This document shows positions 37,334 through 53,024 of a stretch of 64,000 bases of DNA, piece after piece. The stretch lies in NCBI GenBank assembly GCA_037445375.1, contig JBBIKS010000006.1:19237-83236 (forward strand), in the 5' to 3' direction. Position numbers and translations under genes: made by a program. The notes beneath the pieces are model-generated. The model made no database searches. It was not told where the DNA came from and worked only from the letters and a program-made list of their open reading frames with translations. The stretch comes from Nitrospirota bacterium (GTDB taxonomy: Bacteria > Nitrospirota > Thermodesulfovibrionia > Thermodesulfovibrionales > Dissulfurispiraceae). The first letter of the stretch is position 1. The number at the start of each line of letters is the position of its first letter.

Positions 37334-37678
37334 TCAAGCTATTTCTTTATTTTCTCTGTGGTTAATTGCTTTACTGCCTTTATGTTCAATTAATACCCTC
37401 CAGTAATAGCCTGCCGCAAATCCCCCGATTGCTCCCGCTGTCAAAAAGACAAAAAGGAGCAAATCTCCCTGATCGGTATTAATAAAGGGTTCTTTTGGTT
37501 CAATTCCAAACTCTTTAGCAAATTTTTCGATAACCGATTCATCAACACCTGTCCACTTTTCTGAAGCAAAAGCTGAAGGCTGAAGACTGACAAGGAACAA
37601 CAGAGCAGTCGAGCAGCAGAGCAGCCAGAAAATTACTCTATAACTTTGAATTTTAAATTTTGAATTTTGAATTTTCAT
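37334..37678 (-). CDS. cbiN: Cobalt transport protein CbiN
   Basis: N- and C-terminal TM helices and a ...EKWTGVDE... loop. ATGA overlap with the cbiM stop. Confidence 0.8.
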   Translation of the reverse strand: MKIQNSKFKIQSYRVIFWLLCCSTALLFLVSLQPSAFASEKWTGVDESVIEKFAKEFGIEPKEPFINTDQGDLLLFVFLTAGAIGGFAAGYYWRVLIEHKGSKAINHRENKEIA

Positions 37679-38484
37679 GCCTTCACCTCCGACTGCCTTA
37701 AAACCATTAATTTAACAAGTAAATCAGGCCTCTTTTTATATAAAAGCATTACTACGCCGGCTGTCATAGCCCCTTCTAAAATCCCAAGCGGAATCTGAGT
37801 GGGGGCAAATGCAATGATTATCTGCGTCATAAGTGGAAGAAATGGTGATTCACCTCTTATGCCTGACGCAAGTTCAATGGATGTCATAATATATGTCGCC
37901 CAATCAGCCAGTAGTCCTGCAAAAAAGCTTGAGATCATAAGCGGTGCCCTAAGATACATTAGAACTTTAAAGATAGCAAAACCTGCAAATGACCCTATAA
38001 CTCCCATAGAGACGATATTTGCGCCAAGAGTGCTAAGTCCGCCATGTGCTAAAAATAGAGCTTGTATGAAAAGGGCAACTGATGCAACTACCACGCTAAT
38101 TGCAGGACCAAGTATTATTGCAGTAATTCCTGTGCCTGCTGGATGAGAGCAGGTACCTGCTGTCGGCACAGGGACAGGCATACAGGAGATTATAAATACG
38201 ACTGCTGCCAAAAGACCGACAAGAGGTTTAAATGACAAATCATTTTTAGAGACCACCTTTATCCTCCATATCCCGTAGGATATGAATGGAATAGCCACTG
38301 CATACCAGATTAACGCCCAGTCCAGCGGTAGTATGCCTTCGGATATGTGCATTGCATGAGCATCGGAAACAGTGAATAGTGAATAGTGAATAGTGAATAG
38401 TGAAAAAAATAAGATTTTGTGTTTTAAATCTTGAATTTTAAATCTTGGTTTTTTAATTTTGAATCTTGAATCTTGAATCCTCAT
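37675..38484 (-). CDS. cbiM: Cobalt ECF substrate-capture component CbiM, with a repeat-encoded signal peptide
   Basis: AHA|MHISEGILP mature N-terminus. GGAGGAG SD upstream of the ATG at 38484. Alternative start at 38352. Confidence 0.9.
   Translation of the reverse strand: MRIQDSRFKIKKPRFKIQDLKHKILFFSLFTIHYSLFTVSDAHAMHISEGILPLDWALIWYAVAIPFISYGIWRIKVVSKNDLSFKPLVGLLAAVVFIISCMPVPVPTAGTCSHPAGTGITAIILGPAISVVVASVALFIQALFLAHGGLSTLGANIVSMGVIGSFAGFAIFKVLMYLRAPLMISSFFAGLLADWATYIMTSIELASGIRGESPFLPLMTQIIIAFAPTQIPLGILEGAMTAGVVMLLYKKRPDLLVKLMVLRQSEVKA
38371..38404. repeat. Tandem heptamer (AGTGAAT) x 4.9 inside the cbiM signal-peptide codons
   Basis: Direct reading: agtgaatagtgaatagtgaatagtgaatagtgaa. 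Confidence 0.9.
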
Positions 38485-38512
38485 ATCTCCTCCAGATTTT
38501 TGGATCTTGAAT

Positions 38513-39514
38513 TTATTTTTCAGCCATTTTCAATAAGGCATTTACGATTGCTACTGCTACAGCCGTGCCACCTTTTCTGCTATGATTGGTTATAAAAGGA
38601 AATCGCTGGGCTGAAAGGAGCATCTTTGATTCGATAGCATTTACAAAGCCCACAGGCACCCCAATAACGAGAGGCTCACCCCCCCTTGAAGCCCCCGAAG
38701 GGGAGGTAAATAATTCTATTACCCTCAATAAGGCTGTCGGTGCATTGCCAATGGCTATGATCCCAATATTGTTGTTATTAATTAGTGCTTCCTCGATGCC
38801 CCTTTCGGCTTTCGTTTTTTGTTCACCTTCTTTGTCTTGAAAATTTTGAATATTGCAAATCACCTTTCCGCCCCATTCGTTGAGAAGTTTCTTGTTTATG
38901 CCAGTTTTGACCATTTCCACATCAGTAAGGATATCCCTGCCGGCTTTGATTGCATTAATCCCTGCACTTATGGCATTAGGATGGAAGACCATTGTTTTTT
39001 TGAACTCAAAATCAGCGGTTGCATGGATGACCCTTTTTATAATTGGCAGTTGTTCAATGGGAATGCCGCTAAAATCGTCCTCCTCACCGATAATCTCAAA
39101 GCTCTTCTTTTCAATATTGCCTCCCTTTATGCCGTTGATAGAATTGACTCTATCGAGGATTATCTCGACAAGTTTTTCATGCACACCCAGAGGTTCTGAA
39201 TAATAGAAATCTACATTTGGATATATACTCCTTGCTTCGTCAATTATCTCTGGTATATCTTTGGTCACATGCATACCCGAGCTTAAAAAAAACGGATGAA
39301 TTATGAGCCTTTCTGCCCCGCTATTAACACATTCTTTTATTGTTGACATAAGATCAGGCTCTACGAACTGAAGATAGGCAATCCTAACGCAATCGCCTGT
39401 GCATGAGGGATGAATAGCCTGATGGAGAAGTTTCCCAATTGCTTCGATATTATTAGCTTCTTTTTTAGGACTGCCATGCCCTATAAGCAGGATTCTATCT
39501 CTATCTTTAGACAT
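38513..39514 (-). CDS. Fusion of CbiX-type sirohydrochlorin cobaltochelatase and precorrin-8X methylmutase (CbiC)
   Basis: N-terminal half ILLIGHGSP...IHPFFLSSGMH. C-terminal half VIHATADFEF...IGNAPTAL...IGVPVGFVNAIESK. Confidence 0.8.
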   Translation of the reverse strand: MSKDRDRILLIGHGSPKKEANNIEAIGKLLHQAIHPSCTGDCVRIAYLQFVEPDLMSTIKECVNSGAERLIIHPFFLSSGMHVTKDIPEIIDEARSIYPNVDFYYSEPLGVHEKLVEIILDRVNSINGIKGGNIEKKSFEIIGEEDDFSGIPIEQLPIIKRVIHATADFEFKKTMVFHPNAISAGINAIKAGRDILTDVEMVKTGINKKLLNEWGGKVICNIQNFQDKEGEQKTKAERGIEEALINNNNIGIIAIGNAPTALLRVIELFTSPSGASRGGEPLVIGVPVGFVNAIESKMLLSAQRFPFITNHSRKGGTAVAVAIVNALLKMAEK

Positions 39515-39516
39515 TA

Positions 39517-41055
39517 TTAATGACTCCTTATAATGAAATTTATAAAAATATCAGCTGTTTGTGGATTGCTGCCGAAATGAATGTGTATATAACTGGCAAA
39601 GGTGTTTTTATATAAAAAACCTTCATTCTCCTGTAACTCACCGCTGCTACTCCTGATTGAATAAATTTTGTTAATGATACCTCCTCTTGCCGATGAAGAC
39701 ATTCCCGATTCTACGACTCCGCTTCGCTCAGTCCGTAAATCTTGGACGGTCCCCTCCACTTGACCCTTAACTATCTCAGAATAATGAAACTCATGACCTC
39801 TCAGAATGCTGCCTTTATAGCCAAGCAGGCAGTCTTCAATCAACTGAACTTCCCTGTAACCCAAGCGTGAGAGTTTGTCTCTCATCTGTGTTTCAAAAGG
39901 AAAGACGCCAGCCATCGCATAATATCCCCCATTATTACCCATCCCTAACCCCTCCAAAGAGGTGTAATATATCCCCTGAGACAGATACATAAGCCCGCCG
40001 CATTCAGCATACAAGGGTTTGCCGGAGTCAGACCATTCATAGATTGCTTTGAGCATCGAGTGGTTTTTTGATAGTCTTTCGGCGTAAAGCTCAGGGTAGC
40101 CACCACCAAGATAAATGGCGTCAATACCATCTGGCAATGAGGAGTCTTCAAGCGGGCTGAAATGAACAATTTCTGCACAGGCATTCCTGAACATATCGAG
40201 GTTGTCTTCGTAATAAAAACAAAAAGCCTTATCATATGCAACAGCTACTCTCTTAAATTGCGGCTGGCAGTTTGCCATTTCAAGGGATTTTATATCTGTT
40301 GAAGCCTTTGAAATCCGAGTCTCAGGCTTTTTGACCTCACTGCATGAAATTATGTCTTTTACATTAATGTGTTTGAGCACAGCATCTGCGAGCTTATTTA
40401 TATTTTTTTCCGTGACAGGGTTTTCTTCGGCAACAGTAAGCCCTAAATGTCTGTGAGGAATCTCAAAATTGATGTCACGGCTTAAATACCCCAAAACCGG
40501 GACTTCCTGAACACCATTTTTTAGTCTTTCATAATGTCTTTCCGATGCCACACGATTGAAGATAACACCTGTAATAAGCGTGGAAGTGCGGAAGTGTAGA
40601 AGTGCGGAAGTCTCTTGAACGTTTTCTGTCGCTCTGCTCCTATGTCGATTTGTCGCACTATATTCCACAAAGCCCTTTACAAGAGCGCCTGCACTCTCAG
40701 CCATGCCATAAGCATCTGCAACAAGAATAACCGGCAGGTTCAGGAGTTCTGCTATAGATGCGGTGCTGAATTGCCCATCATACATCCCCATTACGCCTTC
40801 TATTACGGATATATCGGCTCTCTCAGAGTATTTATAAAAGCATTCTCTCACATAATCCTCCCCGCACATCCATATATCCAGATTTCTCGAGGGAACTCCG
40901 GTTATCAATCTGTGAAGACCTGCATCAATAAAGTCTGGACCACATTTAAAGGGTTGAACCTTAAGCCCCATTGCCTGAAACGCCGCCATTAGCCCCAATG
41001 CTACGGTTGTCTTGCCGCATCCGCTGTGTGTGCCTGCGACGATTACTGCGCGCAT
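39517..41055 (-). CDS. cbiA: Cobyrinate a,c-diamide synthase
   Basis: VAGTHSGCGKTTV P-loop and a C-terminal GATase region (ECGGLMYL). About 50 aa longer than usual because of insertions. Confidence 0.9.
   Translation of the reverse strand: MRAVIVAGTHSGCGKTTVALGLMAAFQAMGLKVQPFKCGPDFIDAGLHRLITGVPSRNLDIWMCGEDYVRECFYKYSERADISVIEGVMGMYDGQFSTASIAELLNLPVILVADAYGMAESAGALVKGFVEYSATNRHRSRATENVQETSALLHFRTSTLITGVIFNRVASERHYERLKNGVQEVPVLGYLSRDINFEIPHRHLGLTVAEENPVTEKNINKLADAVLKHINVKDIISCSEVKKPETRISKASTDIKSLEMANCQPQFKRVAVAYDKAFCFYYEDNLDMFRNACAEIVHFSPLEDSSLPDGIDAIYLGGGYPELYAERLSKNHSMLKAIYEWSDSGKPLYAECGGLMYLSQGIYYTSLEGLGMGNNGGYYAMAGVFPFETQMRDKLSRLGYREVQLIEDCLLGYKGSILRGHEFHYSEIVKGQVEGTVQDLRTERSGVVESGMSSSARGGIINKIYSIRSSSGELQENEGFLYKNTFASYIHIHFGSNPQTADIFINFIIRSH
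40583..40614. repeat. Tandem octamer GAAGTGNN x 4 inside cbiA
   Basis: gaagtgcg gaagtgta gaagtgcg gaagtctc. Encodes ...TSALLHFRTS... Confidence 0.85.
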
Positions 41056-42107
41056 AGATTAGATAACTCCTTGAATAATCTATTAATATCTTGAGGTGAC
41101 TTTACAGCCACCCTTATATATGTCTTGTCGAGACCCCTGAAATTTTTACAGTTTCTTACCAATATATATGATTTATGGAGGCATGAGATGATTTGCTGGG
41201 CATTTATTATGCTTATGAGATAGTAATTTATTTCAGATGGTATAAATTCAATTGAAAGCCCCTTTAGTCCTTGCTCCATCAAGATCTTCCCCTCTGAGAC
41301 TATTCTGTATGTCTCTTTTTTGTAATCGGTGTCCTTTAGGGCAGCTATACCTGCATTTTGAGCAATTGTGCTTACTGTCCATGGTTCCTTATTTTGGAGA
41401 ATTTTTTCGACTATGGACTGATGAAAAACCCCGAAACCGAGCCTTAAAGCAGACAGGGCATAGAACTTTGTCAATGACCTTAAAACGATAAGGTAAGGAT
41501 TATTTTGAACCTCTTTTATGATAGAGCGTCCCGGCAGAAAATCAATAAATGCCTCATCTATAACCAGATAACATTTGAATCGTCTCGCTGCATCAGCTAT
41601 TTGAAGAAGGTCATCAGTTTTTATTAATCTGCCAGTTGGATTATTTGGATTACAGATGAAAGCCATTTCGTATCCATTCATGTTGTTTATGAATTTATCG
41701 GAATCGAGGTCAAAGCTATCTTTTCTGTTCAAAAAAAAGTGTTTTATCTGTGCACCTGTAGCAATGCACGCCCTTTCATATTCAGAGAATGTTGGAGCAG
41801 AAATTATCACGGTTTTTGGTTTCAATGCCCTTGCACACAGATAGATCAACTCGGTGCTTCCGTTGCCACAAATAATGGATTCTGAATCAATGCCGTGATA
41901 TGCGGAAAGTGCATCTCTTAGCTTCTTTGCTTCGGGGTCGGGATAATGATACATTGAGCTCTTGATGCCCTGTATCTCATGTATAACTGATAAGGGCAGT
42001 CCAAGCGGGTTAATGGATGCACTGAAGTCAATTATCCAGCTTTCGGAAATGTTGAATTTCTCTGCATATCTGTATATATTTCCGCCGTGTTCTATCATCT
42101 CATCCAT
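41043..42107 (-). CDS. cobD: L-threonine-O-3-phosphate decarboxylase (class II aminotransferase fold)
   Basis: HisC-like sequence with the PLP lysine in RSLTKFYAL. Context lies between cbiB and cbiA. Confidence 0.8.
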   Translation of the reverse strand: MDEMIEHGGNIYRYAEKFNISESWIIDFSASINPLGLPLSVIHEIQGIKSSMYHYPDPEAKKLRDALSAYHGIDSESIICGNGSTELIYLCARALKPKTVIISAPTFSEYERACIATGAQIKHFFLNRKDSFDLDSDKFINNMNGYEMAFICNPNNPTGRLIKTDDLLQIADAARRFKCYLVIDEAFIDFLPGRSIIKEVQNNPYLIVLRSLTKFYALSALRLGFGVFHQSIVEKILQNKEPWTVSTIAQNAGIAALKDTDYKKETYRIVSEGKILMEQGLKGLSIEFIPSEINYYLISIINAQQIISCLHKSYILVRNCKNFRGLDKTYIRVAVKSPQDINRLFKELSNLCAQ

Positions 42108-42109
42108 CC

Positions 42110-43123
42110 TTATTTAATATAAAGAAAATACAGCACAACTGATGCAATAGCAGCGCCAAATACCGCAGAACACGAAACCACTCTCAACGCCACCCTCGCG
42201 GCTGTTATATAGTTTTGATGCCTCGCTTCTCCAATATAAGGCTTTTTAACCAAAATCCCGCCATAGTATGATGGACCTCCAAGTCTCACTCCCAGTCCGC
42301 CTGCCATTGCAGCTTCCGGTATGCCGCTGTTTGGGCTTGTATGGTTTCCGCCATCCCTCAGCATAATCTGCAATGATATACGGGCAATCGGGATTGAGCG
42401 AAAAACGATGAGAAATGCGATAACGATGAGTATGCCCGTAATTCTTGCTGGAATATAATTCACATAATCATCTAAACGTGCTGATGCCCATCCGAAATTT
42501 ATATATTTCTCATTCTTATATCCAACCATTGAATCCAGAGTATTGATTGCCTTATATGCCATAGCAACAGGAATGCCCCCGATGGTGAGATAAAAAATTG
42601 GAGCTATAACGCCATCTGAGAGGTTTTCGGAAATAGACTCTATGGCTGCCTTGATAATATCTTCTTCTGAGAGATTCTGGGTATCTCTGCCTACTATCAT
42701 ACTTAATTTTGACCTCGCATCTTTGATATTACCTGACTGAACTGCGTCAATAACCCGCTTCACAGAGCGCATTAATTCGCCGGTTGCAATTGTGACAGCG
42801 GTCAAATAAATAAGAAATACAGAGCTGAAAAAAATAACGATACCTGTTGAAAAAGCCTGAACTATCTTGATTATCATAAGAGTTATAAGAAAGACTGGGA
42901 TAACTATAAGAGCTACAAGTAAAATACCTGCAATTTTTTCACCCTTGGTTGTCTTAAAAAATCTCCTCAAAAGGTTTTCAGTCTTACTAATTGCAGCTCC
43001 GATTAATCTGACAGGGTGAGGCAGCCAGCGGGGATCGCCGAGTGCAAGGTCAATAAAGAAAGCTATAATAAAAAAAGCAGGCGGAAGACTAAAAACTGAT
43101 AGTGGGATCAAACCAATTATCAT
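42110..43123 (-). CDS. cbiB: Adenosylcobinamide-phosphate synthase
   Basis: Membrane protein with GDPRWLPHPVRLIG and NSGIPEAAMAGGLGVRLGG. Confidence 0.9.
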   Translation of the reverse strand: MIIGLIPLSVFSLPPAFFIIAFFIDLALGDPRWLPHPVRLIGAAISKTENLLRRFFKTTKGEKIAGILLVALIVIPVFLITLMIIKIVQAFSTGIVIFFSSVFLIYLTAVTIATGELMRSVKRVIDAVQSGNIKDARSKLSMIVGRDTQNLSEEDIIKAAIESISENLSDGVIAPIFYLTIGGIPVAMAYKAINTLDSMVGYKNEKYINFGWASARLDDYVNYIPARITGILIVIAFLIVFRSIPIARISLQIMLRDGGNHTSPNSGIPEAAMAGGLGVRLGGPSYYGGILVKKPYIGEARHQNYITAARVALRVVSCSAVFGAAIASVVLYFLYIK

Positions 43124-44682
43124 AGTCTTATTATCCTCTCTATAAAATCCATATCAAGATTTTCTGATACTATATTGGAAAGATTATTTAATGCCTTTTC
43201 CTTAATATCTTTATAACTTAATGTAAATTTAAGGGGATTTAATCCCTTTAGCTGCCTCATGTAGTCAATGACGCCCCTTCTGAAGGAGTCATTATCAAAT
43301 ATCCCATGGATATAAGTCCCCCAGCAATTGGAGTTTTGAGAGCCGTCAAGATAATGCTTGGTGGAGGAATCTAAAGAACTATCGGAAGCCCTTTTTAGTT
43401 TAAAAAGACCGATATCACCTTCGCTCACTCCCATATGTATTTCATAACCTCTTAATTCCTGAGATGCACTATCCTGACTTAAGAGAGGCAAAAATGGGAA
43501 TATATCCTTGCCCTTTTTGCCATTTAGTATGACATTAACTTGAGATGTAATCTTCAGCTTTTGAAAGGTTGTCTCAATATCCAGAAGTCCTAACCCTTCA
43601 GTCTCCTTAAAATGGCTTTCTACAGAATAAGGGTCGAGTATCCTCCTGCCCAACATTTGGTAGCCGCCGCACATGCCCATTATCTGGATGCCATGATTAA
43701 ATGCCCTCTTTATGCTCTCGTCAAGCCCTGTCTTCTTCAAAAAAAGCAGGTCATTGATTGTGTTTTTGGTGCCGGGTATAATGACCATATCTGCATTCTC
43801 AATCTCAGACGGGTTTTGTGAATAAAAGATATCTACATCTGGCTCGTAAAAGAATGGGTCAAAATCCGTGAAATTGGACATAAATTTAAGCCTGACGACG
43901 ACAATTTTTATTTTTTCATGAACTGACTTGAACTCAATAGGTTTAATTGAGAATGTATTTCTTGAAAGGGCAAGCCCATCTTCTTCCGGCAAGCCAATAT
44001 CCGTTATATATGGCAGAACGCCTATTACGGGTTTACCTGTCTTCTGTTCAATCATCTTTAAGCCGGGGCTTAATATTTCAGGGTCTCCCCTGAACTTGTT
44101 TATTACAAAAGCCCTGATATACCTGCTATGCTTGCCGAGCAGTTTTATCGTCCCATAAAGTGAGGCAAATACTCCACCCTTGTCAATGTCGCCGACCAAT
44201 ACAACTGGAGAATTGACATGCCGTGCAACCGCCATGTTTACGATATCTGCATCCATAAGGTTTATCTCTGCAGGGCTGCCAGCGCCTTCAATAATAATCA
44301 AATCATGTTTCTTTGAGAGCCTGTGGTAAGATGCCTTTACAGCATCCCAAGTCTCTTTTTTGTTGGCATAATACTGCTGGGGCTTCATGTGGCCGACTGC
44401 CTTGCCGTGAATAATTACTTGGGATCCCATCTCACCTGAGGCTTTAAGTAAAACAGGATTCATATCAACTGAAGGCTCAACCCTCGCTGCTTCCGCCTGA
44501 AGCGCCTGCGCCCTGCCTATCTCGCCTCCCTCGATGGTTATATAAGAATTCAAAGCCATATTCTGAGCCTTAAAGGGAGCTACAGTGATCCCCTGATCGC
44601 TAAAATACCTGCATAATGCGGCTACTATAAGACTCTTGCCTACACCTGAGCCTGTTCCCTGTATCATTAAAGCATTAGCCAA
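43120..44682 (-). CDS. cobQ: Cobyric acid synthase
   Basis: MIQGTGSGVGKS and a C-terminal GATase (MGMCGGYQML). Confidence 0.9.
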   Translation of the reverse strand: MANALMIQGTGSGVGKSLIVAALCRYFSDQGITVAPFKAQNMALNSYITIEGGEIGRAQALQAEAARVEPSVDMNPVLLKASGEMGSQVIIHGKAVGHMKPQQYYANKKETWDAVKASYHRLSKKHDLIIIEGAGSPAEINLMDADIVNMAVARHVNSPVVLVGDIDKGGVFASLYGTIKLLGKHSRYIRAFVINKFRGDPEILSPGLKMIEQKTGKPVIGVLPYITDIGLPEEDGLALSRNTFSIKPIEFKSVHEKIKIVVVRLKFMSNFTDFDPFFYEPDVDIFYSQNPSEIENADMVIIPGTKNTINDLLFLKKTGLDESIKRAFNHGIQIMGMCGGYQMLGRRILDPYSVESHFKETEGLGLLDIETTFQKLKITSQVNVILNGKKGKDIFPFLPLLSQDSASQELRGYEIHMGVSEGDIGLFKLKRASDSSLDSSTKHYLDGSQNSNCWGTYIHGIFDNDSFRRGVIDYMRQLKGLNPLKFTLSYKDIKEKALNNLSNIVSENLDMDFIERIIRL

Positions 44683-44685
44683 TAT

Positions 44686-47600
44686 TTACTCCTCTAACAA
44701 AAGCCGTTCTATCTCGTCATAAATCTTGTCAATATTTTGCTGTATCTCGATGGTTTCTTGAATTGCCGTGGCAATTCTGCAATAGGTCTGAATTTCATCA
44801 AGAGACAGTGAGCGTCCTTTCCTGTCCTTCAGCCATTTATCACAGACCTGATAACCACCGATTTGATAGCTCCATACATTTTGTGAAATGCCTTCAAAGT
44901 ACTGGGTCTTGTTGATATGAACAACCCCCTTTAATTCCCCCTTAGCAAAGGGGGACTGTGGGGGTTGTTCATATTTCGGTTTCTCTACCATGTTGTCTCC
45001 CTTCCCCTGAAACCGTGCAATCGGGTTTTGCAGGGGCGAATTGCCATTCGCCGAGTACCTTAACAGGTGAAGGTCAATAAGCCTGTTGCCGTATTCAGAC
45101 ATCTTTTTAAACAGCTTATAATCTTTTGTAAAAGGAACTCTCGGGAAGTCTATCTTTAAGAATTCAGCATACTTTGTGCGGTAAATGTTTGAGTAAAGAA
45201 CGGCATAGATGTAATAAAAGATTTCTTCAGGGGATGGGGGTTTTTTAAATTCTTTTGTTAGTCTTACAACTAATGCTGGCGGCAGGTTCGGCTTTTTTTC
45301 GCCATATTCTGCCTGTTCTTCAAAAAGCATCATAACGCTGCCTAATGAACGTTTCTTAGGTTTATCTTTTTGCTGATAGAGATAAAGGGGAAAGAGGAAT
45401 CCTATTCCTTTATTGCTAAGTGTTACACGGCTTTCTATAATACTATCTGTTATATAGGCATGGTTAAAAGTGCCTTCTGCAACCTGTCTAACAGTCACTA
45501 ACCCCAGATTCTCGCGTATCATATGCCTCATGACTTCTTTTCTTGAACGCTCTATAACCGCCTCATGATAAAAAATGTATCGGACATCAAAAGGCCTATA
45601 TAAAATCTTTGTTATTGCCTCTGTCCAGTTGTCATTTTTTCTGACAGTTTCACGAGCATCTTTCAATTTAAACTTTGAGGTGTCTGCCAGATTAAAGGTT
45701 TGTCGTATGATTTCATCGGGCATTTTTTCGCTTGTAAACATCCTGATCCGCCGTTTGAGGGCTTCTTTATCATCGTCAATTACAAAACCGTCTCTTGACG
45801 TAACTATTCCTACACTATTCACGGGGAAAATATCTGTTATTATGAGATAGGTGTCATATTGCTTTAAAAGCCCTTCGTCTCTCGGTATAAAAAGATAAAA
45901 CTCTGACTTTGGGTTAATCTTTTTCCATTTTGTGGTTTTAATATCGTGTTTGTTGAGCCAATCATATTTATGCTCTCTTATTCCCCATAGTTCAGAGTGA
46001 GAAATCTTCTTCTTAAGACCCTTCTTTTTTACAAACAATGCAATTGCTACTCCCTGCTGAATGTCAAAGACATTTTCGTCTTTAGAGCCGTCGGGGCATT
46101 TCTCTTTTTTAAGACTATTGCCGTGAAGATCAAGAAAATAAATCTCATCAAAACTCTGCATCAATGACTGACGCATACCTCTGAATGTTGGGTTATCAAG
46201 ATAGCTGTGATTTGTAATAAATCCCAAAACGCCTTCGCCTGCCTGTTCAATCTTCCATTGCGCAAAGCGAATAAATTTCACATAATCATCCTGAAGCCAT
46301 TTTGGGTTCTTTTCACCAAGTGGTTTGCTGTCAACCTGATAGTAAGCTTTAATCTCTGATGATATCCATTCTCCAATATTTGATGAATGTCCTGAATACG
46401 GCGGATTTCCTAAAATCACCAATATCGGCTGTTCCTTCTTCACCCTCCCTGCAAGGTGTGATTCTTCAGACAGGGAAGCCATTCCCGGCAGTTCTGTCTG
46501 TGCAAGTTCTTCCATTTCAAGGGTATTTGTCAAATAAAGTTTAAACCTATCATCTTCATGAAGCTTATATCCAAGTTCTTCAAGGAGAAAAGACATTTTT
46601 AAGTGCCCTATTGCATACGGCGCCATCATCAATTCAAAGGCATAGAAGTTTTTTAGAACATGCTCTTTTATGAACTTTTCTTTGCCGCCTTCGCCGTATT
46701 TTGAAGCAAATTCATCAACTGCCAGTTTTGCTGCCTCCGCCAAAAAGGTGAGCGTTCCTGCGGCAGGGTCCAACACCGTTACAGAGGGATTCGCAAAGCC
46801 GTCATCTTTGTTGAAATGCTCTTTCAAAATATGGTGCAGAGAACGGACAATATAAGAGACTACAGGCTCAGGCGTATAATAGACACCCCTTTTCTCTCTG
46901 GTTTTAGGGTCGTATTCTGCAAGAAAAGTTTCGTAGAAATGGACTATGGGGTCTTTGCCTTTGCCCTCGTGGTAGTATTGATGCAGTATCTTGTTTATGT
47001 CTGTGACAGACAGAATTTCAGAAATATCATCAATTATCCATACCATCTGTTGAGGGAGGGAGCCCAAAGAAACAAACTGGAAAACATCTCTCAGGATGCC
47101 TATTGTCTGAGGGATATTGTCATAGGCGAGTTTTCTGTTAAAACCATTCTCTGAACGTGTCCGGGAAGCAAACAGTCCATATGTGATGGTCTGGCTGTAG
47201 AGGTCTGCAAATTCATCAGCCGTTAAACTTCTTATTAAGTAGTCTTTAAATGCCTTATAAAAGCCTAATATAAATCCCTTTCCTGTCCTTTCTTCCCTCC
47301 TCAACTCCTGCGCTATAACCTCATCTTTTAAAAAACGTGTCCTTTTGGCAAGCTCTGTTGCAAGGGTCTTTGGTTCGTAAACCTTAGGAATTGAGAAGGA
47401 AAAAAACTTCTCAAAAAGTTCAAATAGTTCGTTCTCTCTTTCAACAGGCGGTGAAATTTTCAGCTTGTTGAGTATTACAGGTCTGCCGGCAAGGACTTTA
47501 TCAGTCAACGCTCCATTTCGGTAAAGCCTGAACTCAAGGAAATTAGTAAGCATCAGATTGGGGAAGGTGTGCAGGTATCTCTTTAGCTGCTCGGTGTCCT

Positions 47601-47856
47601 CTATCCTGTCGAGATTATCAACGATGGGGTCTTTAGCCTCTATATAACCTGTGATATGCTGTTTTCCATCCCATACCCTGAAATCAGGGTTTCCTGCCTC
47701 TGTTTTTTTAGGCAGGATAGTTATATGGATGTTTTTTTTGTCTATGGAACTGCAATATTCATTAAGCAATTCTGCAAGGGCAGGATAATAGCTCTCTTCT
47801 CGCGCATCGCCGCGATTTGCAGTTTCTGTTAATTTATTCAAATATGGTTTGATCAT
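44686..47856 (-). CDS. Single-chain type IIL/IIG (MmeI-like) restriction-modification enzyme
   Basis: N-terminal D-x9-E-A-K (WDGKQHITGYIEAK). Methylase motif I VLDPAAGTLTF and motif IV NPPY. Type-ISP-like C-terminus (GGYQVCDKWLKDRKGR). Confidence 0.75.
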   Translation of the reverse strand: MIKPYLNKLTETANRGDAREESYYPALAELLNEYCSSIDKKNIHITILPKKTEAGNPDFRVWDGKQHITGYIEAKDPIVDNLDRIEDTEQLKRYLHTFPNLMLTNFLEFRLYRNGALTDKVLAGRPVILNKLKISPPVERENELFELFEKFFSFSIPKVYEPKTLATELAKRTRFLKDEVIAQELRREERTGKGFILGFYKAFKDYLIRSLTADEFADLYSQTITYGLFASRTRSENGFNRKLAYDNIPQTIGILRDVFQFVSLGSLPQQMVWIIDDISEILSVTDINKILHQYYHEGKGKDPIVHFYETFLAEYDPKTREKRGVYYTPEPVVSYIVRSLHHILKEHFNKDDGFANPSVTVLDPAAGTLTFLAEAAKLAVDEFASKYGEGGKEKFIKEHVLKNFYAFELMMAPYAIGHLKMSFLLEELGYKLHEDDRFKLYLTNTLEMEELAQTELPGMASLSEESHLAGRVKKEQPILVILGNPPYSGHSSNIGEWISSEIKAYYQVDSKPLGEKNPKWLQDDYVKFIRFAQWKIEQAGEGVLGFITNHSYLDNPTFRGMRQSLMQSFDEIYFLDLHGNSLKKEKCPDGSKDENVFDIQQGVAIALFVKKKGLKKKISHSELWGIREHKYDWLNKHDIKTTKWKKINPKSEFYLFIPRDEGLLKQYDTYLIITDIFPVNSVGIVTSRDGFVIDDDKEALKRRIRMFTSEKMPDEIIRQTFNLADTSKFKLKDARETVRKNDNWTEAITKILYRPFDVRYIFYHEAVIERSRKEVMRHMIRENLGLVTVRQVAEGTFNHAYITDSIIESRVTLSNKGIGFLFPLYLYQQKDKPKKRSLGSVMMLFEEQAEYGEKKPNLPPALVVRLTKEFKKPPSPEEIFYYIYAVLYSNIYRTKYAEFLKIDFPRVPFTKDYKLFKKMSEYGNRLIDLHLLRYSANGNSPLQNPIARFQGKGDNMVEKPKYEQPPQSPFAKGELKGVVHINKTQYFEGISQNVWSYQIGGYQVCDKWLKDRKGRSLSLDEIQTYCRIATAIQETIEIQQNIDKIYDEIERLLLEE
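44917..44972. repeat. 56-bp nested perfect palindrome inside the RM coding sequence
   Basis: Outer arms ATGAACAACCCCC / GGGGGTTGTTCAT. Inner hairpin TCCCCCTT-AGCA-AAGGGGGA. Read in frame it gives YEQPPQSPFAKGELKGVVH. Confidence 0.9.
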
Positions 47857-47869
47857 ACTATAGCGATTG

Positions 47870-48562
47870 CTACTCTATATTATAATTTAATAGTTTTACC
47901 ACCGGATACTTTTCCCAGAACTCAATGATATTTACCGCCGCATTATCCTGTTCAATCCTGAATATATGTTCAAGCGGAATCTCAAGAAAATGGCATAATA
48001 TAATCCTGTTAACCCCTCCGTGAGCAACGATGGCAATATTTTCTGCCTGTGTCTTGTGATTATCCATAATACCCTCAACAGCCTTTATTACCCTGTCTCT
48101 TACTTCAAGGGTATTTTCGCCGTTTAGAGGAGAATACTTTAGGGGATTAGCAGCCCACTTTTCAAACTCAAATGGATATTTGTCCTTAATCTCAAGGAAT
48201 GTCATGCCTTCCCATACGCCGAAACACCTTTCTCTCAGGTCAGGCACTACCACAGGCTTTAATCCAGACGGCTCTGCTACAATCTCAGCACTCCTTAATG
48301 CCCTGCTTAAGCTTGAGGAATAAACGGCGGTTAAAGCTGCGGGGTCGCTTCTGTTTATTGATATATCGCTGTGCAAATCTTTTAAATAGTCTGTATGCCT
48401 CAAAGCAGCTGATTTTTGGATATGCTTATGTATAAATTCAGAAGACCTTTTGATCTGCTCCTCACCTCTTGGGGAAAGGGGGACATCAATACTGCCTTTG
48501 TATCTCTTTACATCATCGCCCTCAGTTGCGCCGTGCCTTATCAGATATAAAGTCGTGACCAT
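47870..48562 (-). CDS. cobC: Alpha-ribazole phosphatase (histidine phosphatase family)
   Basis: LIRHGAT catalytic motif and HGG later. Context with cobS. Confidence 0.8.
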   Translation of the reverse strand: MVTTLYLIRHGATEGDDVKRYKGSIDVPLSPRGEEQIKRSSEFIHKHIQKSAALRHTDYLKDLHSDISINRSDPAALTAVYSSSLSRALRSAEIVAEPSGLKPVVVPDLRERCFGVWEGMTFLEIKDKYPFEFEKWAANPLKYSPLNGENTLEVRDRVIKAVEGIMDNHKTQAENIAIVAHGGVNRIILCHFLEIPLEHIFRIEQDNAAVNIIEFWEKYPVVKLLNYNIE

Positions 48563-49347
48563 GTTATCACCATTAGAAGAAATATTAATTCTGTAAGCTC
48601 GCTTAATGCTCCGAGAGTATCACCTGTCAGTCCGCCGAATCTATCAGCGCATAACTTTATCCAGCGCCAGCTAAAGAGATACAGAAAAATGAGCAGGACA
48701 ATATTAAAGAGATATTGTGTTTCAGGTGCAAATCGGATAAAAATTATCTGAAAAACCACCAATGTTATAATTAATATCATGGTCGTGAAGGCAAATTCCT
48801 TTCCCTTCACGCTGTCTATAAAAATCTTTCCTAATCCGTCACTCCTTGCGGATGAACCGTGAAACATCGCCGTCAACATAGTCCATTTAGAAATCATCGG
48901 CATGAAAAGAAGCGTTGAATAATACATGTAATAAGACATGTGCGATATACCCTTCAGTGAAAGATATTTTAGCGCCAAAATAAATATTATGGCTGTAATC
49001 CCGATAGGTCCTGCTGTTGAGTCCTTCATTACTGCAAGCCGTTTCTGCCTGTCATGAGCTGCATCTCCCGAAGATTTAACTGACAGGGCGTCAAATGTAT
49101 CCGAAAGACCGTCAAGGTGAAAGCCCCCGTTTAAGAGAACGAGAAACAGGAGCATCAGGGCTATGGCAAGTTCTTCATGAAAGACATAGTTAAATGCAAC
49201 GCTCGCAGCAATCAGTAAAACACCTTGCAAAAAACCCACAAAGATAAAAGCATATGAGCTTCTTGCAATGTCGGATTCACTATATGTCGTTTTTACTCTT
49301 ATAGGGATAATCGTTAAAAACTGTAAAGCTATCAGAAAACTTCTCAT
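48541..49347 (-). CDS. cobS: Adenosylcobinamide-GDP ribazoletransferase (cobalamin synthase)
   Basis: Polytopic, with LDGLSDTFDAL and GGLTGDTLGA motifs. Confidence 0.9.
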   Translation of the reverse strand: MRSFLIALQFLTIIPIRVKTTYSESDIARSSYAFIFVGFLQGVLLIAASVAFNYVFHEELAIALMLLFLVLLNGGFHLDGLSDTFDALSVKSSGDAAHDRQKRLAVMKDSTAGPIGITAIIFILALKYLSLKGISHMSYYMYYSTLLFMPMISKWTMLTAMFHGSSARSDGLGKIFIDSVKGKEFAFTTMILIITLVVFQIIFIRFAPETQYLFNIVLLIFLYLFSWRWIKLCADRFGGLTGDTLGALSELTELIFLLMVITWSRLYI

Positions 49348-49385
49348 TTTTTACCTGATGAGAGCGATTCTTTTATCATAAAAAT

Positions 49386-49544
49386 GGGAGGCATGGCTAC
49401 GAAGAAAGCCATAAGCAACACATTACAGCATATCGCTCAATGTTTAAAATCTCTTGCTTTTTCACTTCACAAGTATGTAAACCGTCGGGTGAATTAGATT
49501 AAAACTATGTTGCATTTATGGGTTTCTGAGTAGTCATGCCTCCC
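49386..49544. repeat. Long-range 15-bp inverted repeat bracketing the cobT-cobS spacer
   Basis: GGGAGGCATGGCTAC (49386-49400) pairs with GTAGTCATGCCTCCC (49530-49544). The one mismatch is a G-U pair on one RNA strand. Confidence 0.7.
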
Positions 49545-49587
49545 AATAAATCGCTTAATTTAGGTTTTAATATATCATTCTCAAGCC

Positions 49588-50652
49588 TTAATTTTGAATC
49601 TCATTGCTGACACCTGCATCACCAAATGTTGCCATCTCTTTATAAATCTTGAGCCCTGCTTCAATTATCAGCATCGCAAGCGCCGCACCTGTGCCTTCAC
49701 CGAGCCTTAAATCGAGGTTAAGGATTGGCTTTAACCCCATTTTTTGCAGCATAGCTATGTGTCCTATCTCGACCGAATTGTGCGCCGCAAAGATATAATC
49801 CCTCACCTTTGGTTCAATAAAATAAGCTATCAATGCGCCCGCCGTAGAGATGAACCCATCTATCACCACAGGTATCCTATTTGAAGCTCCGCCGAGAATT
49901 ATCCCTGCGATGCCCCCTATTTCAGTGCCCCCAACCTTTGCAAGGACGTCTAAGGCATCGTTTGGATCGGGCTTGTTAATATTAATAGCAGTATCTATAA
50001 CCTTTATCTTTCTCTTAAATGAATCATCTGATATGCCTGTTCCTCTGCCTGTTACTTCTGCCGCTGGCTTGCCAGTTAAGACAGACGCTATAGCGCTTGA
50101 TGGGGTTGTATTGCCTATGCCCATATCTCCTGTCCCAAAGATCTTATATCCCTTTTGAGTATATTCATTGGCAAGCTCAATCCCGATTTCTATGGATTTT
50201 TCTGCCTGCTGTCTTGACATGGCTGAGATCTTGGTCATATTATTAGTTCCAAACATTACCTTTTTTGTCACTAATCCGTCAATAATCCCAAAGTTATAAT
50301 CCACTCCAATATCAATTACGATAACATCAGCTCCTGCATGTCCTGCAAGCACATTTATCCCTGCTCCGCCTCTAATGAAATTAAATACCATCTGGGATGT
50401 TACTTCCCTTGGATAAGCAGAGACACCTTCTTCCGTAACCCCATGGTCGCCGGCAAATGTAAAGATAACCTTTTTGTCTATTAGGGGCATCTCATTTTCT
50501 TTGATGGCAACAAGTCTCCTTGCAAACTCTTCTAGCCTCCCCAGACTTCCTGGAGGCTTTGTAAGATTATCCAAATGCTTTTGGGCAATATCATAGTACT
50601 TGTTATCAATCGGTCTTATCTTATTAATAACATCTTTAATCAAATTCATCAC
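49588..50652 (-). CDS. cobT: Nicotinate-nucleotide:benzimidazole phosphoribosyltransferase
   Basis: Motifs GDMGIGNTT and [12 protein letters not shown]. Confidence 0.9.
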
Positions 50653-50690
50653 AGAACCTCTTAATTGAAATTAGAATTGAAATCAATACG

Positions 50691-51236
50691 TCAACCTTTT
50701 ATCTTAAGCGGGAGCCCTGAGACCGCTAAATAAGCTTCATCTGCAATATCGGCTACCTTCTGATTTAACACTCCCGCCATATCTCTGAATCTCCTTGAAA
50801 GCGTATTATCAGGCACAATACCCATGCCTATCTCATTAGAAACTATGATAAGCTGTGAGTCAAAGGTGTCGCGAAAAAGGTTCAAGGCAGTAATAAACCT
50901 CTCAAGTTCTGTCTCAATAGTCTTTTCATCATTCTGTCTTGTCAAGAGGTTTGATACCCATATGGTTAGACAATCAAGAACTATAAAGGGATATTTTCCC
51001 ATTGTCAATTTTATACAATCGGCTATTTTAATAGGCTCCTCAAACACATCCCAATCGTTCCCCCTTTGCCTTCTGTGTTTATTGATCCTTTCTTCCATTT
51101 CAGGGTCAAGGGGTTCTGCGGTTGCGATATATGCCTTTTTACCTGAATATAAAGATGCAGGTTTTAAGGCAAGACTACTCTTCCCGCTCCTTGCACCGCC
51201 AGTTATAAAAATTATCTTGCTTTTATGATGTGTCAT
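50691..51236 (-). CDS. cobU: Adenosylcobinamide kinase / adenosylcobinamide-phosphate guanylyltransferase
   Basis: P-loop ITGGARSGKS, 181 aa. Confidence 0.9.
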   Translation of the reverse strand: MTHHKSKIIFITGGARSGKSSLALKPASLYSGKKAYIATAEPLDPEMEERINKHRRQRGNDWDVFEEPIKIADCIKLTMGKYPFIVLDCLTIWVSNLLTRQNDEKTIETELERFITALNLFRDTFDSQLIIVSNEIGMGIVPDNTLSRRFRDMAGVLNQKVADIADEAYLAVSGLPLKIKG

Positions 51237-52538
51237 CTATTTTTTATCGTGGGCTGCCATGTCATTTTCAAACATGCCCTTTAATATTCCATTAGCACAG
51301 AATTTGCCGCACATTGTGCAGGTTGAGCCATCACCGTTACCTCTTTTAGCCTTTATTTCCTTAGCTCTCTCAGGATCTATAGAGGTATCAAACTGACCTT
51401 CCCACTTCATATCCCTTCTTGCCTTAGACATTATTTTATCAGCATTCATATCCTTTCGTTTAATCATATCTCCGACATGAGAGGCTATTCTGGCAGCAAT
51501 AACACCCTCCCTGACATCTTCAGGAAATGGCAATCCGAGATGTTCTGCAGGTGTTACATAACAAATAAAGTCAGCGCCATAAGCAGATGAAAGGGCTGCT
51601 CCAATTGCTGATGTTATATGGTCATAGCCTGGCGCAATATCGGTAGTTATGGGACCTAACATATAAAATGGTGCTTCACCGCTCATCTTTTTCTCCAAGA
51701 TTATATTAGCCTCTATCTCATTGATTGGTATGTGTCCCGGACCTTCCACCATTGTCTGACAGCCCGCCTCTCTACCAATCTCGGCAAGCTCACAATTGAT
51801 AATCAATTCCTGAATCTGCACCCTGTCGTTTGCATCATGAATTGCACCAGCCCTAAAACCATTGCCAAGGCTTAATACACAATCATATTTTCTGAGAATC
51901 TCAACCACCCTGTCGAAATGCTCGTATAGCGGATTTTCCTGATTATTATGCTCCATCCATGCAACCATATATGCACCGCCCTTTGAGACAAGCCCTCCAT
52001 AACGATAATGCTGTTTTCTAAGCATCTCTACTGTTCTTCTGTTAATCCCGCAGTGAATCGCCATAAAAGAGACGCCCTCACTGCATTGCTTCTCAGTAAT
52101 CTCAAAAAGAAGTTCCTTTGGCATCTTTACCGCCGCCCCATATTTTTCGATAGCGATAGCAAAAGCTTCATAGAGAGGCACTGTGCCAAGCGGCAGACTA
52201 ATAGAGTCCTTGACTGCTTTTCTTACAGCCGCAATATCGCCGCCTACACTCAGATCCATTAAGGTATCCGCACCATATCTTTGAGCTATCTTAGCCTTTT
52301 CAACCTCCATATTAATATTTGAAATATCAGTAGATGTGCCGATTGAGGCATTTACCTTAGTCCTTAATCCCTTGCCGATACCCACTATCTTTGCATTCCT
52401 ATTTTTGTTTGCAGGAATCACTATCTTGCCGCTGGCAACCCTTCTGCGGATTATCTCAGAATCAATCCCCTCATTTTGTGCAACAGCCTGAATCTCTAAA
52501 GTAATTTCGCCCTTTAATGCCCTTTGAAGCTGTGTCAT
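51237..52538 (-). CDS. bzaF: ThiC-family radical SAM enzyme. Context suggests 5-hydroxybenzimidazole synthase rather than thiamin ThiC
   Basis: ThiC-like motifs (EGPGHIP, LGPITTDIAPGYDHITSAIGAA, CYVTPAEHLGLP, C-terminal CTMCGKFC). GGGGAGG SD before the ATG at 52538. First gene after a cobalamin riboswitch. Confidence 0.6.
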   Translation of the reverse strand: MTQLQRALKGEITLEIQAVAQNEGIDSEIIRRRVASGKIVIPANKNRNAKIVGIGKGLRTKVNASIGTSTDISNINMEVEKAKIAQRYGADTLMDLSVGGDIAAVRKAVKDSISLPLGTVPLYEAFAIAIEKYGAAVKMPKELLFEITEKQCSEGVSFMAIHCGINRRTVEMLRKQHYRYGGLVSKGGAYMVAWMEHNNQENPLYEHFDRVVEILRKYDCVLSLGNGFRAGAIHDANDRVQIQELIINCELAEIGREAGCQTMVEGPGHIPINEIEANIILEKKMSGEAPFYMLGPITTDIAPGYDHITSAIGAALSSAYGADFICYVTPAEHLGLPFPEDVREGVIAARIASHVGDMIKRKDMNADKIMSKARRDMKWEGQFDTSIDPERAKEIKAKRGNGDGSTCTMCGKFCANGILKGMFENDMAAHDKK

Positions 52539-52550
52539 ATAAACCTCCCC

Positions 52551-52588
52551 AAAAAATAAAAAAAACCTCAAGGCATGACGCCCTGAGG
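52551..52588 (-). terminator. Terminator-like hairpin plus U-tract in the bzaF leader (probable riboswitch expression platform)
   Basis: On the minus strand: CCUCAGGG-cgucaug-CCUUGAGG followed by U8AU6, ending just before the SD. Confidence 0.5.
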
Positions 52589-52744
52589 ATTGCACCCTTT
52601 TTTACTTCATCCCCTGTATCTCATCAAAAGTTAATTCTTCTGAGGAGACTTCCCTTCTATCCGCGAGAAGGCTTTTAGTACGAGTATCAAGTTATTCAGG
52701 TCAGATTATCAAAAAAACTGACACTAATCACCGACACTGTCACT

Positions 52745-52995
52745 ATTCGTTCACAGGCAGGTCTTCTGGCTTCCGGTTCAGATTATTTCTTTGCCTACTC
52801 ACCCACCTTCCCATCCTTCGACAAGTTTAGGACAGTGGCTTTTCTAAAGACAGTATCAGTGTCAATTTATCCTGACTCACTAACTCACCGTCTTCACGGG
52901 TTTTCGTACCGGTTACAGCGGCGGGACCGCCCCTGACTTGGTAAATTAACTCTACCTCACAGGATTCCCTATTAAGCCCTACGGCACCTATAGGA
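52745..52995 (-). promoter_or_regulatory. Cobalamin (B12) riboswitch
   Basis: The minus strand reads GGUGCC..UUAAUAGGGAAUCCUGUGA..GGCGGUCCCGCCGCUGUAA..GCCACUG..GGGAAGG..AAGCCAGAAGACCUGCC (B12 box). Confidence 0.85.
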
Positions 52996-53024
52996 CATTA
53001 TAAATGAAATATAGATGAAAAAAT

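Follow-up and report, generated by a model that had tools for sequence, protein, structure and literature searches.

The window analysed here, a stretch of 64,000 nucleotides from a Nitrospirota bacterium, contains a ThiC-family radical SAM gene surrounded by cobamide genes, and the question raised by this locus is whether the encoded protein of 433 residues serves thiamin synthesis or the making of a cobamide lower ligand. An earlier note on this DNA had favoured the latter and proposed BzaF, the 5-hydroxybenzimidazole (5-OHBza) synthase, arguing from membership of the ThiC family, a cobalamin rather than a TPP riboswitch upstream and cobU-cobT-cobS-cobC downstream. All three observations were confirmed by profile searches: the protein matches PF01964 (ThiC_Rad_SAM; Pfam) with 610 bits over residues 2-418, the aptamer in the leader scores far above the gathering score of the Rfam cobalamin family, and the four nucleotide-loop genes follow on the same strand with gaps of 0 to ~240 nt (Table 1). 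Together with the phylogenetic, residue and comparative genomic evidence described below, these data indicate that the gene is very probably bzaF and an ordinary member of a known family.

BzaF, also named HBI synthase after its product, has reportedly been described in Geobacter sulfurreducens and Desulfuromonas acetoxidans (Hazra et al. 2015; Mehta et al. 2015). In Moorella thermoacetica and Eubacterium limosum, 5-OHBza is made by BzaA and BzaB, a tandem pair of ThiC paralogues, and the bza operons are under cobalamin riboswitches. Unlike these tandem pairs, the bzaF of the window is a single gene.

Gene, leader and operon

The open reading frame extends from 51237 to 52595 on the minus strand and offers two candidate start codons. 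We assign the true start to ATG 52538, since the resulting length of 433 residues is that of nearly all orthologues, a ribosome-binding site (RBS) is found upstream of this codon, and the other candidate, GTG 52595, sits upstream of the terminator hairpin. This hairpin, at 52566-52588, has a 10-bp stem with six G-C pairs and is followed by a run of eight uridines; it is found in both the MFE and the centroid folds of the leader, with a z-score of -3.1. The terminator is located between the aptamer and the RBS, with the U8 run placed immediately before the latter, and hairpin and U8 together are a transcription-terminating expression platform. Binding of a corrinoid to the riboswitch would favour the terminator and the operon would then be off when corrinoid is abundant, a direction of regulation that the arrangement of the leader suggests.

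The gene is the first of an operon for the lower ligand and the nucleotide loop, and cobU begins right after its stop codon, with a gap of zero nucleotides. The last gene of this block, of the cobC type, scores slightly below its equivalog cut-off, and its position in the gene order is kept in relatives. The cobamide cluster continues in a further block, from cobQ to cbiM, and a restriction-modification gene is inserted between the two. Judged from the gene assignments, CobT would attach 5-OHBza to ribose phosphate, CobU would make adenosylcobinamide-GDP, CobS would join the activated base and adenosylcobinamide-GDP, and CobC would remove the phosphate.

Table 1. Features of the bzaF locus, with positions in the window, strand and the basis of each assignment.
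Feature	Position	Strand	Basis
Cobalamin riboswitch aptamer	52739..53006	-	Rfam RF00174, 72.5 bits, gathering score 31.5, E = 6e-16, full model 1-189
Expression platform, intrinsic terminator	52551..52588	-	Terminator scan and direct sequence reading
RBS GGGGAGG	52544..52550	-	Sequence reading; 5 nt before ATG 52538
bzaF (predicted 5-hydroxybenzimidazole synthase, ThiC paralogue), 433 aa	51237..52538	-	PF01964, tree clade, diagnostic residues, BzaF HMM nodes
cobU (adenosylcobinamide kinase / guanylyltransferase)	50691..51236	-	NF004469 189.6 bits, cut-off 161; PF02283
cobT (NaMN:base phosphoribosyltransferase; activates benzimidazole)	49588..50652	-	TIGR03160 451 bits, cut-off 319; PF02277
cobS (cobamide synthase / ribazoletransferase)	48541..49347	-	TIGR00317 131 bits, cut-off 110; PF02654
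cobC-type alpha-ribazole phosphatase (histidine phosphatase family)	47870..48562	-	TIGR03162 149.4 bits, cut-off 162.9; PF00300 183 bits
Cobamide cluster continuation	37675..44682	-	Pfam matches
cobQ/cbiP	43120-44682	-	Pfam
cbiB	42110-43123	-	Pfam
cobD-type aminotransferase	41043-42107	-	Pfam
cbiA	39517-41055	-	Pfam
cbiX-cbiC	38513-39514	-	Pfam
cbiM	37675-38484	-	Pfam

Relationship of the window protein to BzaF and ThiC

The genome of the bacterium (2.2 Mb, 96.8% complete) holds exactly two ThiC-family genes, which are not in tandem and whose products are only 47% identical. The second copy belongs to a thiG-thiE-thiC operon on another contig (C9), and this operon is preceded by the sole TPP riboswitch of the genome. 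The presence of a canonical thiC under a TPP riboswitch implies that the thiamin function is already covered, and the window gene is thus not the sole thiC of its genome; the opposite result was one that the earlier note had named as speaking against BzaF. NCBIfam nevertheless assigns ThiC to both paralogues, and its ThiC equivalog, which has a cut-off of 410, gives the window protein 598.8 bits. We give these calls no weight, because the library has no BzaF model and a recognised BzaF, that of Trichlorobacter lovleyi, scores 600.4 bits on the same model.

This named reference was found by a tblastn search of the window protein against 72,556 plasmids, which returned 386 matching records. The best match lies on plasmid pGLOV01 of Trichlorobacter (Geobacter) lovleyi SZ (WP_012471694.1, 63% identity) and is annotated as "5-hydroxybenzimidazole synthase BzaF", whereas the remaining 385 matches are all ThiC, at no more than 48% identity to the window protein. 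Shelton et al. 2019 (PMC6461909) enter WP_012471694.1 as bzaF in their Supplementary Table 8, with 648 bits and a trusted cut-off of 564.1, beside WP_010943635.1 of G. sulfurreducens with 640 bits, and supplementary file 7 of the same study gives G. sulfurreducens PCA as a producer of 5'-hydroxybenzimidazolylcobamide, citing Hazra et al. 2015. Other searches provided no further anchor: the contig search with the window protein gave matches from Nitrospirota only and no named BzaF, no entry from the accessible part of the published BzaF list turned up in the cluster-representative search or in two cluster look-ups, and a sequence search of the PDB, aimed at a structure of BzaF, returned long-form ThiC only.

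The main phylogeny was calculated with IQ-TREE from 50 sequences under LG+C20+F+G4 (PMSF) with 200 bootstrap trees. On the BzaF side it included the window protein, its Nitrospirota orthologues, the T. lovleyi BzaF and relatives from Desulfobacterota (Dissulfuribacter, Thermosulfuriphilus, Desulfobulbaceae), and for the rest six named ThiCs, each from a different phylum, the C9 ThiC of the genome itself and 50%-identity cluster representatives drawn from a library of 1.8 billion proteins. The whole BzaF side, joined by one cluster representative, forms a single branch (UFBoot 100 / SH-aLRT 98) which is present in 100% of the bootstrap trees, and the same BzaF grouping is given by a quick tree of 86 rows. 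Clustering of the window protein inside bona fide ThiC, another outcome that had been named as contrary to the proposal, was therefore not seen, and it is the genome's own C9 copy that is placed among the canonical short-form ThiCs. None of ten cluster representatives tested reached the BzaB cut-off, so the tree stands without a BzaA/BzaB anchor.

In order to characterise the two families at the residue level, 30 BzaF-clade and 35 ThiC sequences were compared, which gave ten diagnostic positions. The window protein carries, with the ThiC state in brackets, S65 (N), A160 (T), Y178 (gap), K186 (R), N226 (D), A230 (P), C249 (G), C260 (V), S286 (C) and I325 (L), and it is identical to the T. lovleyi BzaF at all ten. 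Two of these changes are found at positions that contact 5-aminoimidazole ribotide (AIR). Asp383 of AtThiC, a highly conserved residue among ThiCs, makes a hydrogen bond with N3 of AIR, whereas BzaF has Asn (PMC12661338, PMC11117688); with the offset of 9 between the At and Cc numbering, taken from E422/E413, it corresponds to D374 of CcThiC, to which N226 of the window protein aligns and where the genome's own ThiC has Asp. The second is S65, which corresponds to AtThiC N228, a residue that makes a hydrogen bond with the 3'-OH of AIR. Among the Nitrospirota orthologues the motif SLGNG[FY]RAG is found in 80 of 80, so that the N226 position is Asn in every one of them, and it is Asp in 35 of 35 ThiCs. 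Two stretches of the BzaF HMM published by Shelton et al. 2019 agree with these states: they read V-N-A-S-I-G-T-S and G-N-G-x-R-A-G, Asp, Pro and Asn are improbable at the diagnostic nodes, and nodes 226-227 favour Asn with Asp rare.

The window protein and ThiC, as represented by the Caulobacter (3EPM) and Arabidopsis (4S25-4S29) structures, have in common the PF01964 fold, the AIR/SAM substrate family, the Cys triad for the Fe-S cluster, and the catalytic Glu (Cc E413; window E265) and Cys (Cc C474; window C326), both of which are conserved in the two families. They differ in overall identity, which is 44-49%, in the two AIR contacts, in RAG for RPG, in the one-residue insertion at Y178 and in genetic setting, where a cobalamin riboswitch and cob neighbours take the place of a TPP riboswitch and thi neighbours. 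The spacing of the C-terminal cysteines had also been pointed out in the earlier note, as a comparison to be checked. The motif is indeed CTMCGKFC (CX2CX3C), where the long form, CSMCGPKFC, has one residue more, but it has no value in distinguishing BzaF from ThiC, as the genome's own ThiC (CSMCGDFC) has the same spacing, which is also common to the ThiCs of Haliovirga, Clostridium and Thermus and to the T. lovleyi BzaF (CTMCGNFC). Among the proteins compared, CX2CX4C is found only in long-form ThiCs (Caulobacter, Bacillus, Parabacteroides); the Cys spacing was rejected as a discriminator, and what it separates is short-form from long-form proteins.

As in the characterised members of the family, the enzyme, a non-canonical radical SAM protein with the ThiC fold, would convert AIR to 5-OHBza. 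The CTMCGKFC triad would hold a [4Fe-4S] cluster which cleaves SAM reductively, and the 5'-deoxyadenosyl radical would abstract hydrogen from C5' of AIR. [quoted passage not shown] The altered hydrogen bonding at Asn226 (Asp in ThiC) and Ser65 (Asn in ThiC) has been proposed to steer the addition towards C5 rather than C2.

Two other identities for the gene product were weighed against BzaF. It could be a genuine second HMP-P synthase, i.e. a ThiC isozyme whose control by cobalamin and co-transcription with cob genes would be accidental, and the passing of the NCBIfam ThiC cut-offs as well as the retention of E265 and C326 would be in keeping with this. The AtThiC D383N variant also keeps partial ThiC activity (PMC11117688), so N226 alone would be compatible with residual HMP-P synthesis. 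Against an isozyme, a known BzaF scores equally on the ThiC models, the protein lies inside the BzaF clade with full support and has all ten BzaF-specific residues, two of them in contact with AIR, a canonical thiC with its TPP riboswitch is already present, and the orthologues never adjoin thiG or thiE and almost always adjoin cobamide genes; we therefore regard this identity as very improbable. Even less credit is due to the idea that the protein is one half of a two-subunit BzaA/BzaB system or a BzaB orthologue. In its favour, the BzaB model TIGR04386 gives 532.8 bits, but this value falls far short of the cut-off, which is 700, and is also lower than the 551 bits of the genome's canonical ThiC, the genome has no tandem pair among its two ThiC-family genes, and the protein groups with single-gene BzaF.

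The BzaF assignment is thus the one which the data favour, and the proposal of the earlier note gained support from several sides: the second, canonical thiC, the BzaF clade, the ten residues and, as described below, the cobamide context and the bzaC/D/E-type genes of relatives. With the T. lovleyi SZ protein taken as representative of BzaF, both are encoded by single-gene ThiC paralogues of ~433-436 residues with 61-63% identity, and they share the clade, the diagnostic sites, the CX2CX3C motif, cobT/cobamide neighbours and coexistence with a distinct canonical ThiC. Unlike the known BzaF, the window gene comes from another phylum (Nitrospirota, order Thermodesulfovibrionales), is the first gene behind its own riboswitch, abutting cobU-cobT-cobS-cobC, and has orthologues that are named ThiC in RefSeq.

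Orthologues across Thermodesulfovibrionales

The genomic context of the orthologues was scored within 5 kb at the 76 loci that had enough flanking sequence. Genes of the cob, cbi or bza type are present at 71 of the 76, bzaC/D/E-type genes lie beside the orthologue at 18, and neither thiG nor thiE was found near it at any of them. Four arrangements occur. In some the riboswitch is followed by bzaF and cobUTSC, as in the window, in others the order is riboswitch-cobUTSC-...-cobQ-bzaF, and bzaF can also lie within a corrin-ring cbi operon. The fourth arrangement has the architecture of BzaC/BzaD/BzaE, bzaF being accompanied by a fusion of an O-methyltransferase with DUF2284 and by two B12-binding radical SAM genes; one such locus (L034) reads bzaF, bzaC-like, two radical SAM genes, cobT and cobS. 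Gene sets resembling the bzaF-bzaC-bzaD-bzaE operons of the anaerobic DMB pathway are found in relatives, whereas the window's genome is without bzaC, bzaD and bzaE.

We also surveyed 121 sampled genomes of the order. The identities of their copies to the window protein fall strictly into two modes, one of at least 72% and one of 44-49%. The low-identity copy, ThiC, is near-universal, with a match in 118 of the 121 genomes. The high-identity copy is found in ~53 and is almost always additional to the canonical ThiC copy. Only ThiC is found in one genus-level group, which consists of small, complete genomes and is possibly the cultured Thermodesulfovibrio. That genus is absent from the accessible portions of the supplements of Shelton et al. 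(PMC6461909), for which the lack of a high-identity copy in this group, if it is indeed that genus, is a likely reason. Our literature search found no paper connecting bzaF with Nitrospirota, and the RefSeq/PGAP name of the Nitrospirota orthologues is "phosphomethylpyrimidine synthase ThiC".

Predicted lower ligand and its significance

In light of the assignment, the genome was searched for enzymes that could modify the base further. With the BzaC-, BzaD- and BzaE-type proteins of relatives as queries, no orthologue of bzaC, bzaD or bzaE was found in the operon or in the rest of the 96.8%-complete genome, true orthologues among the relatives being 48-74% identical. The best hits were an O-methyltransferase on contig C29 (26% identity) and the product of an unrelated B12-binding radical SAM gene on contig C85. 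The C85 gene was considered as BzaD/E and rejected, as its product is 23-26% identical to these proteins, compared with 54-74% among true orthologues. BluB was not found in the genome either, its best match reaching 86.5 bits where the cut-off is 150; CbiD is present. With neither bzaC/D/E nor BluB detected, we predict from the gene content that the pathway stops at 5-OHBza and that the final cobamide is the 5-hydroxybenzimidazolyl form (Factor III type). The expectation of 5-OHBza rather than DMB, which had been drawn from the operon, thus stands at the level of the genome, where these genes are missing although they lie beside the orthologue in relatives, with one caveat concerning an O-methyltransferase.

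This enzyme is encoded on contig C29 (C29:11322-12338) and is the only family-2 O-methyltransferase of the genome. Its gene stands alone among neighbours which, as read from their translations, we take to be an rlmN-like gene, speE and hrcA. Were the product of the BzaF-clade enzyme methylated further by this protein, a 5-methoxybenzimidazolyl cobamide would result. Orthologues of the C29 gene (73% and 65% identity) are found at two loci of relatives, L006 and L021, in divergent orientation directly upstream of the riboswitch-bzaF operon, and in T. lovleyi an O-methyltransferase gene comes immediately after bzaF, both of which point towards such a step. In the window's own genome, however, the C29 gene is unlinked to bzaF, and its product lacks DUF2284 and shares just 23-26% identity with the relatives' BzaC-type proteins; we therefore consider the 5-methoxy form unlikely, and the 5-hydroxybenzimidazolyl cobamide is retained as the prediction. 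The T. lovleyi methyltransferase, a possible reference for BzaC, served only as a lead, as "lovleyi" is found in bzaF rows only in the accessible portion of the table of Shelton et al. A broader proposition would combine two parts: that the uncultured Thermodesulfovibrionales are a large unlisted reservoir of anaerobic benzimidazole synthesis, including DMB/cobalamin producers with bzaF-bzaC-bzaD-bzaE, and that in the window's sub-lineage an O-methyltransferase without DUF2284 replaces BzaC to give the 5-methoxy base. Taken as a whole, we hold this combination to be unlikely.

Taken together, the locus adds a new member to a known family, and the copies of this lineage are systematically annotated as ThiC. 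The RefSeq/PGAP naming and the lack of an NCBIfam model that separates BzaF from ThiC mean that thiamin and cobamide predictions for Thermodesulfovibrionales are skewed. The finding reveals no new mechanism and is of use for annotation and for cobamide ecology. The reassignment predicts anaerobic synthesis of a benzimidazole lower ligand in ~44% of the sampled genomes of the order, and some relatives of the bacterium probably make methylated forms or DMB. In anoxic aquifers, sediments and hot springs, this bears on the range of corrinoids that cross-feeding could draw on.

BzaC-, BzaD- and BzaE-type genes in the relatives

In 16 Thermodesulfovibrionales relatives (loci L011-L017, L025, L026, L029, L034, L041, L055, L057, L059 and L073), the bzaF orthologue is adjoined by a bzaC-type gene that encodes an O-methyltransferase-DUF2284 fusion, the architecture of BzaC. 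Two B12-binding radical SAM genes with the BzaD/E architecture lie beside bzaF in 14 of these 16 relatives, L025 and L055 having a match to one of the two only, and a second cobalamin riboswitch often precedes the bzaC/D/E-type genes. This arrangement has the appearance of a full anaerobic pathway of the DMB type within Nitrospirota.

The window's genome encodes a single family-2 O-methyltransferase, which is devoid of DUF2284 and is unlinked to bzaF, being found on another contig, C29. Its orthologues in two relatives, L006 and L021, are divergently oriented and located immediately upstream of the riboswitch-bzaF operon, and the C29-type enzyme may be a stand-alone analogue of BzaC.

Features of the window, of other contigs of its genome (C10, C29) and of related loci
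Feature	Location	Strand	Remarks
Restriction-modification (RM)-type gene	window 44686-47856	-	single chain, 1056 aa; N6_Mtase and Type ISP C-terminal specificity domain
cobT-cobS spacer	window 49348-49587		240 nt; operon tight elsewhere
Family-2 O-methyltransferase	C29:11322-12338	+	338 aa
O-methyltransferase orthologue, L006	~6571-7542	-	73% identity
O-methyltransferase orthologue, L021	~6599-7573	-	65% identity
Second cobalamin riboswitch of the genome	C10:46072-46360 (= L087 10073-10361)	-	36.5 bits

Sister group and published model of BzaF

The library representatives P0142 and P0143, a pair of ThiC-like proteins on a long branch, are sister to the BzaF clade (UFBoot 95, SH-aLRT 95). Both carry SLGNTMRSGCIHD at the diagnostic site and score below every NCBIfam BzaB and TIGR00190 cut-off; the pair may be BzaA-like. 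In nodes 63-70 and 223-234 of the published BzaF HMM (PMC6461909, supplementary file 17), the emission maxima are paired and shifted by one position, for example G/N followed by N/G and A/S followed by I/S. Across these nodes the seed alignment seems to combine two registers, and the HMM would therefore be blunted exactly at the diagnostic residues.

Mosaic identity of the cobamide operon to L005

The cobamide operon is interrupted by the RM-type gene, placed between cobC and cobQ; in L006 these two genes are ~25 nt apart, cobQ being the downstream one. Among 80 related loci its sole other carrier is L005, at 99% amino-acid identity, and no match to it was found in other close relatives. Comparison of the window with L005 gave identities of 88% for BzaF, 75% for CobU and 83% for CobT, which rise to 96% for CobS and 95% for CobC and return to 86% for CobQ beyond the RM-type gene. 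Because identity to L005 is mosaic (window 47870-52538, together with the RM-type gene and CobQ), these comparisons suggest that cobS, cobC and the RM-type gene belong to a segment that was exchanged recently.

Corrinoid uptake

Downstream of the C10 cobalamin riboswitch are genes for a TonB-dependent receptor and for a BtuFCD-type binding protein, permease and ATPase. From its predicted genes, the organism is both a synthesizer and an importer of corrinoids.
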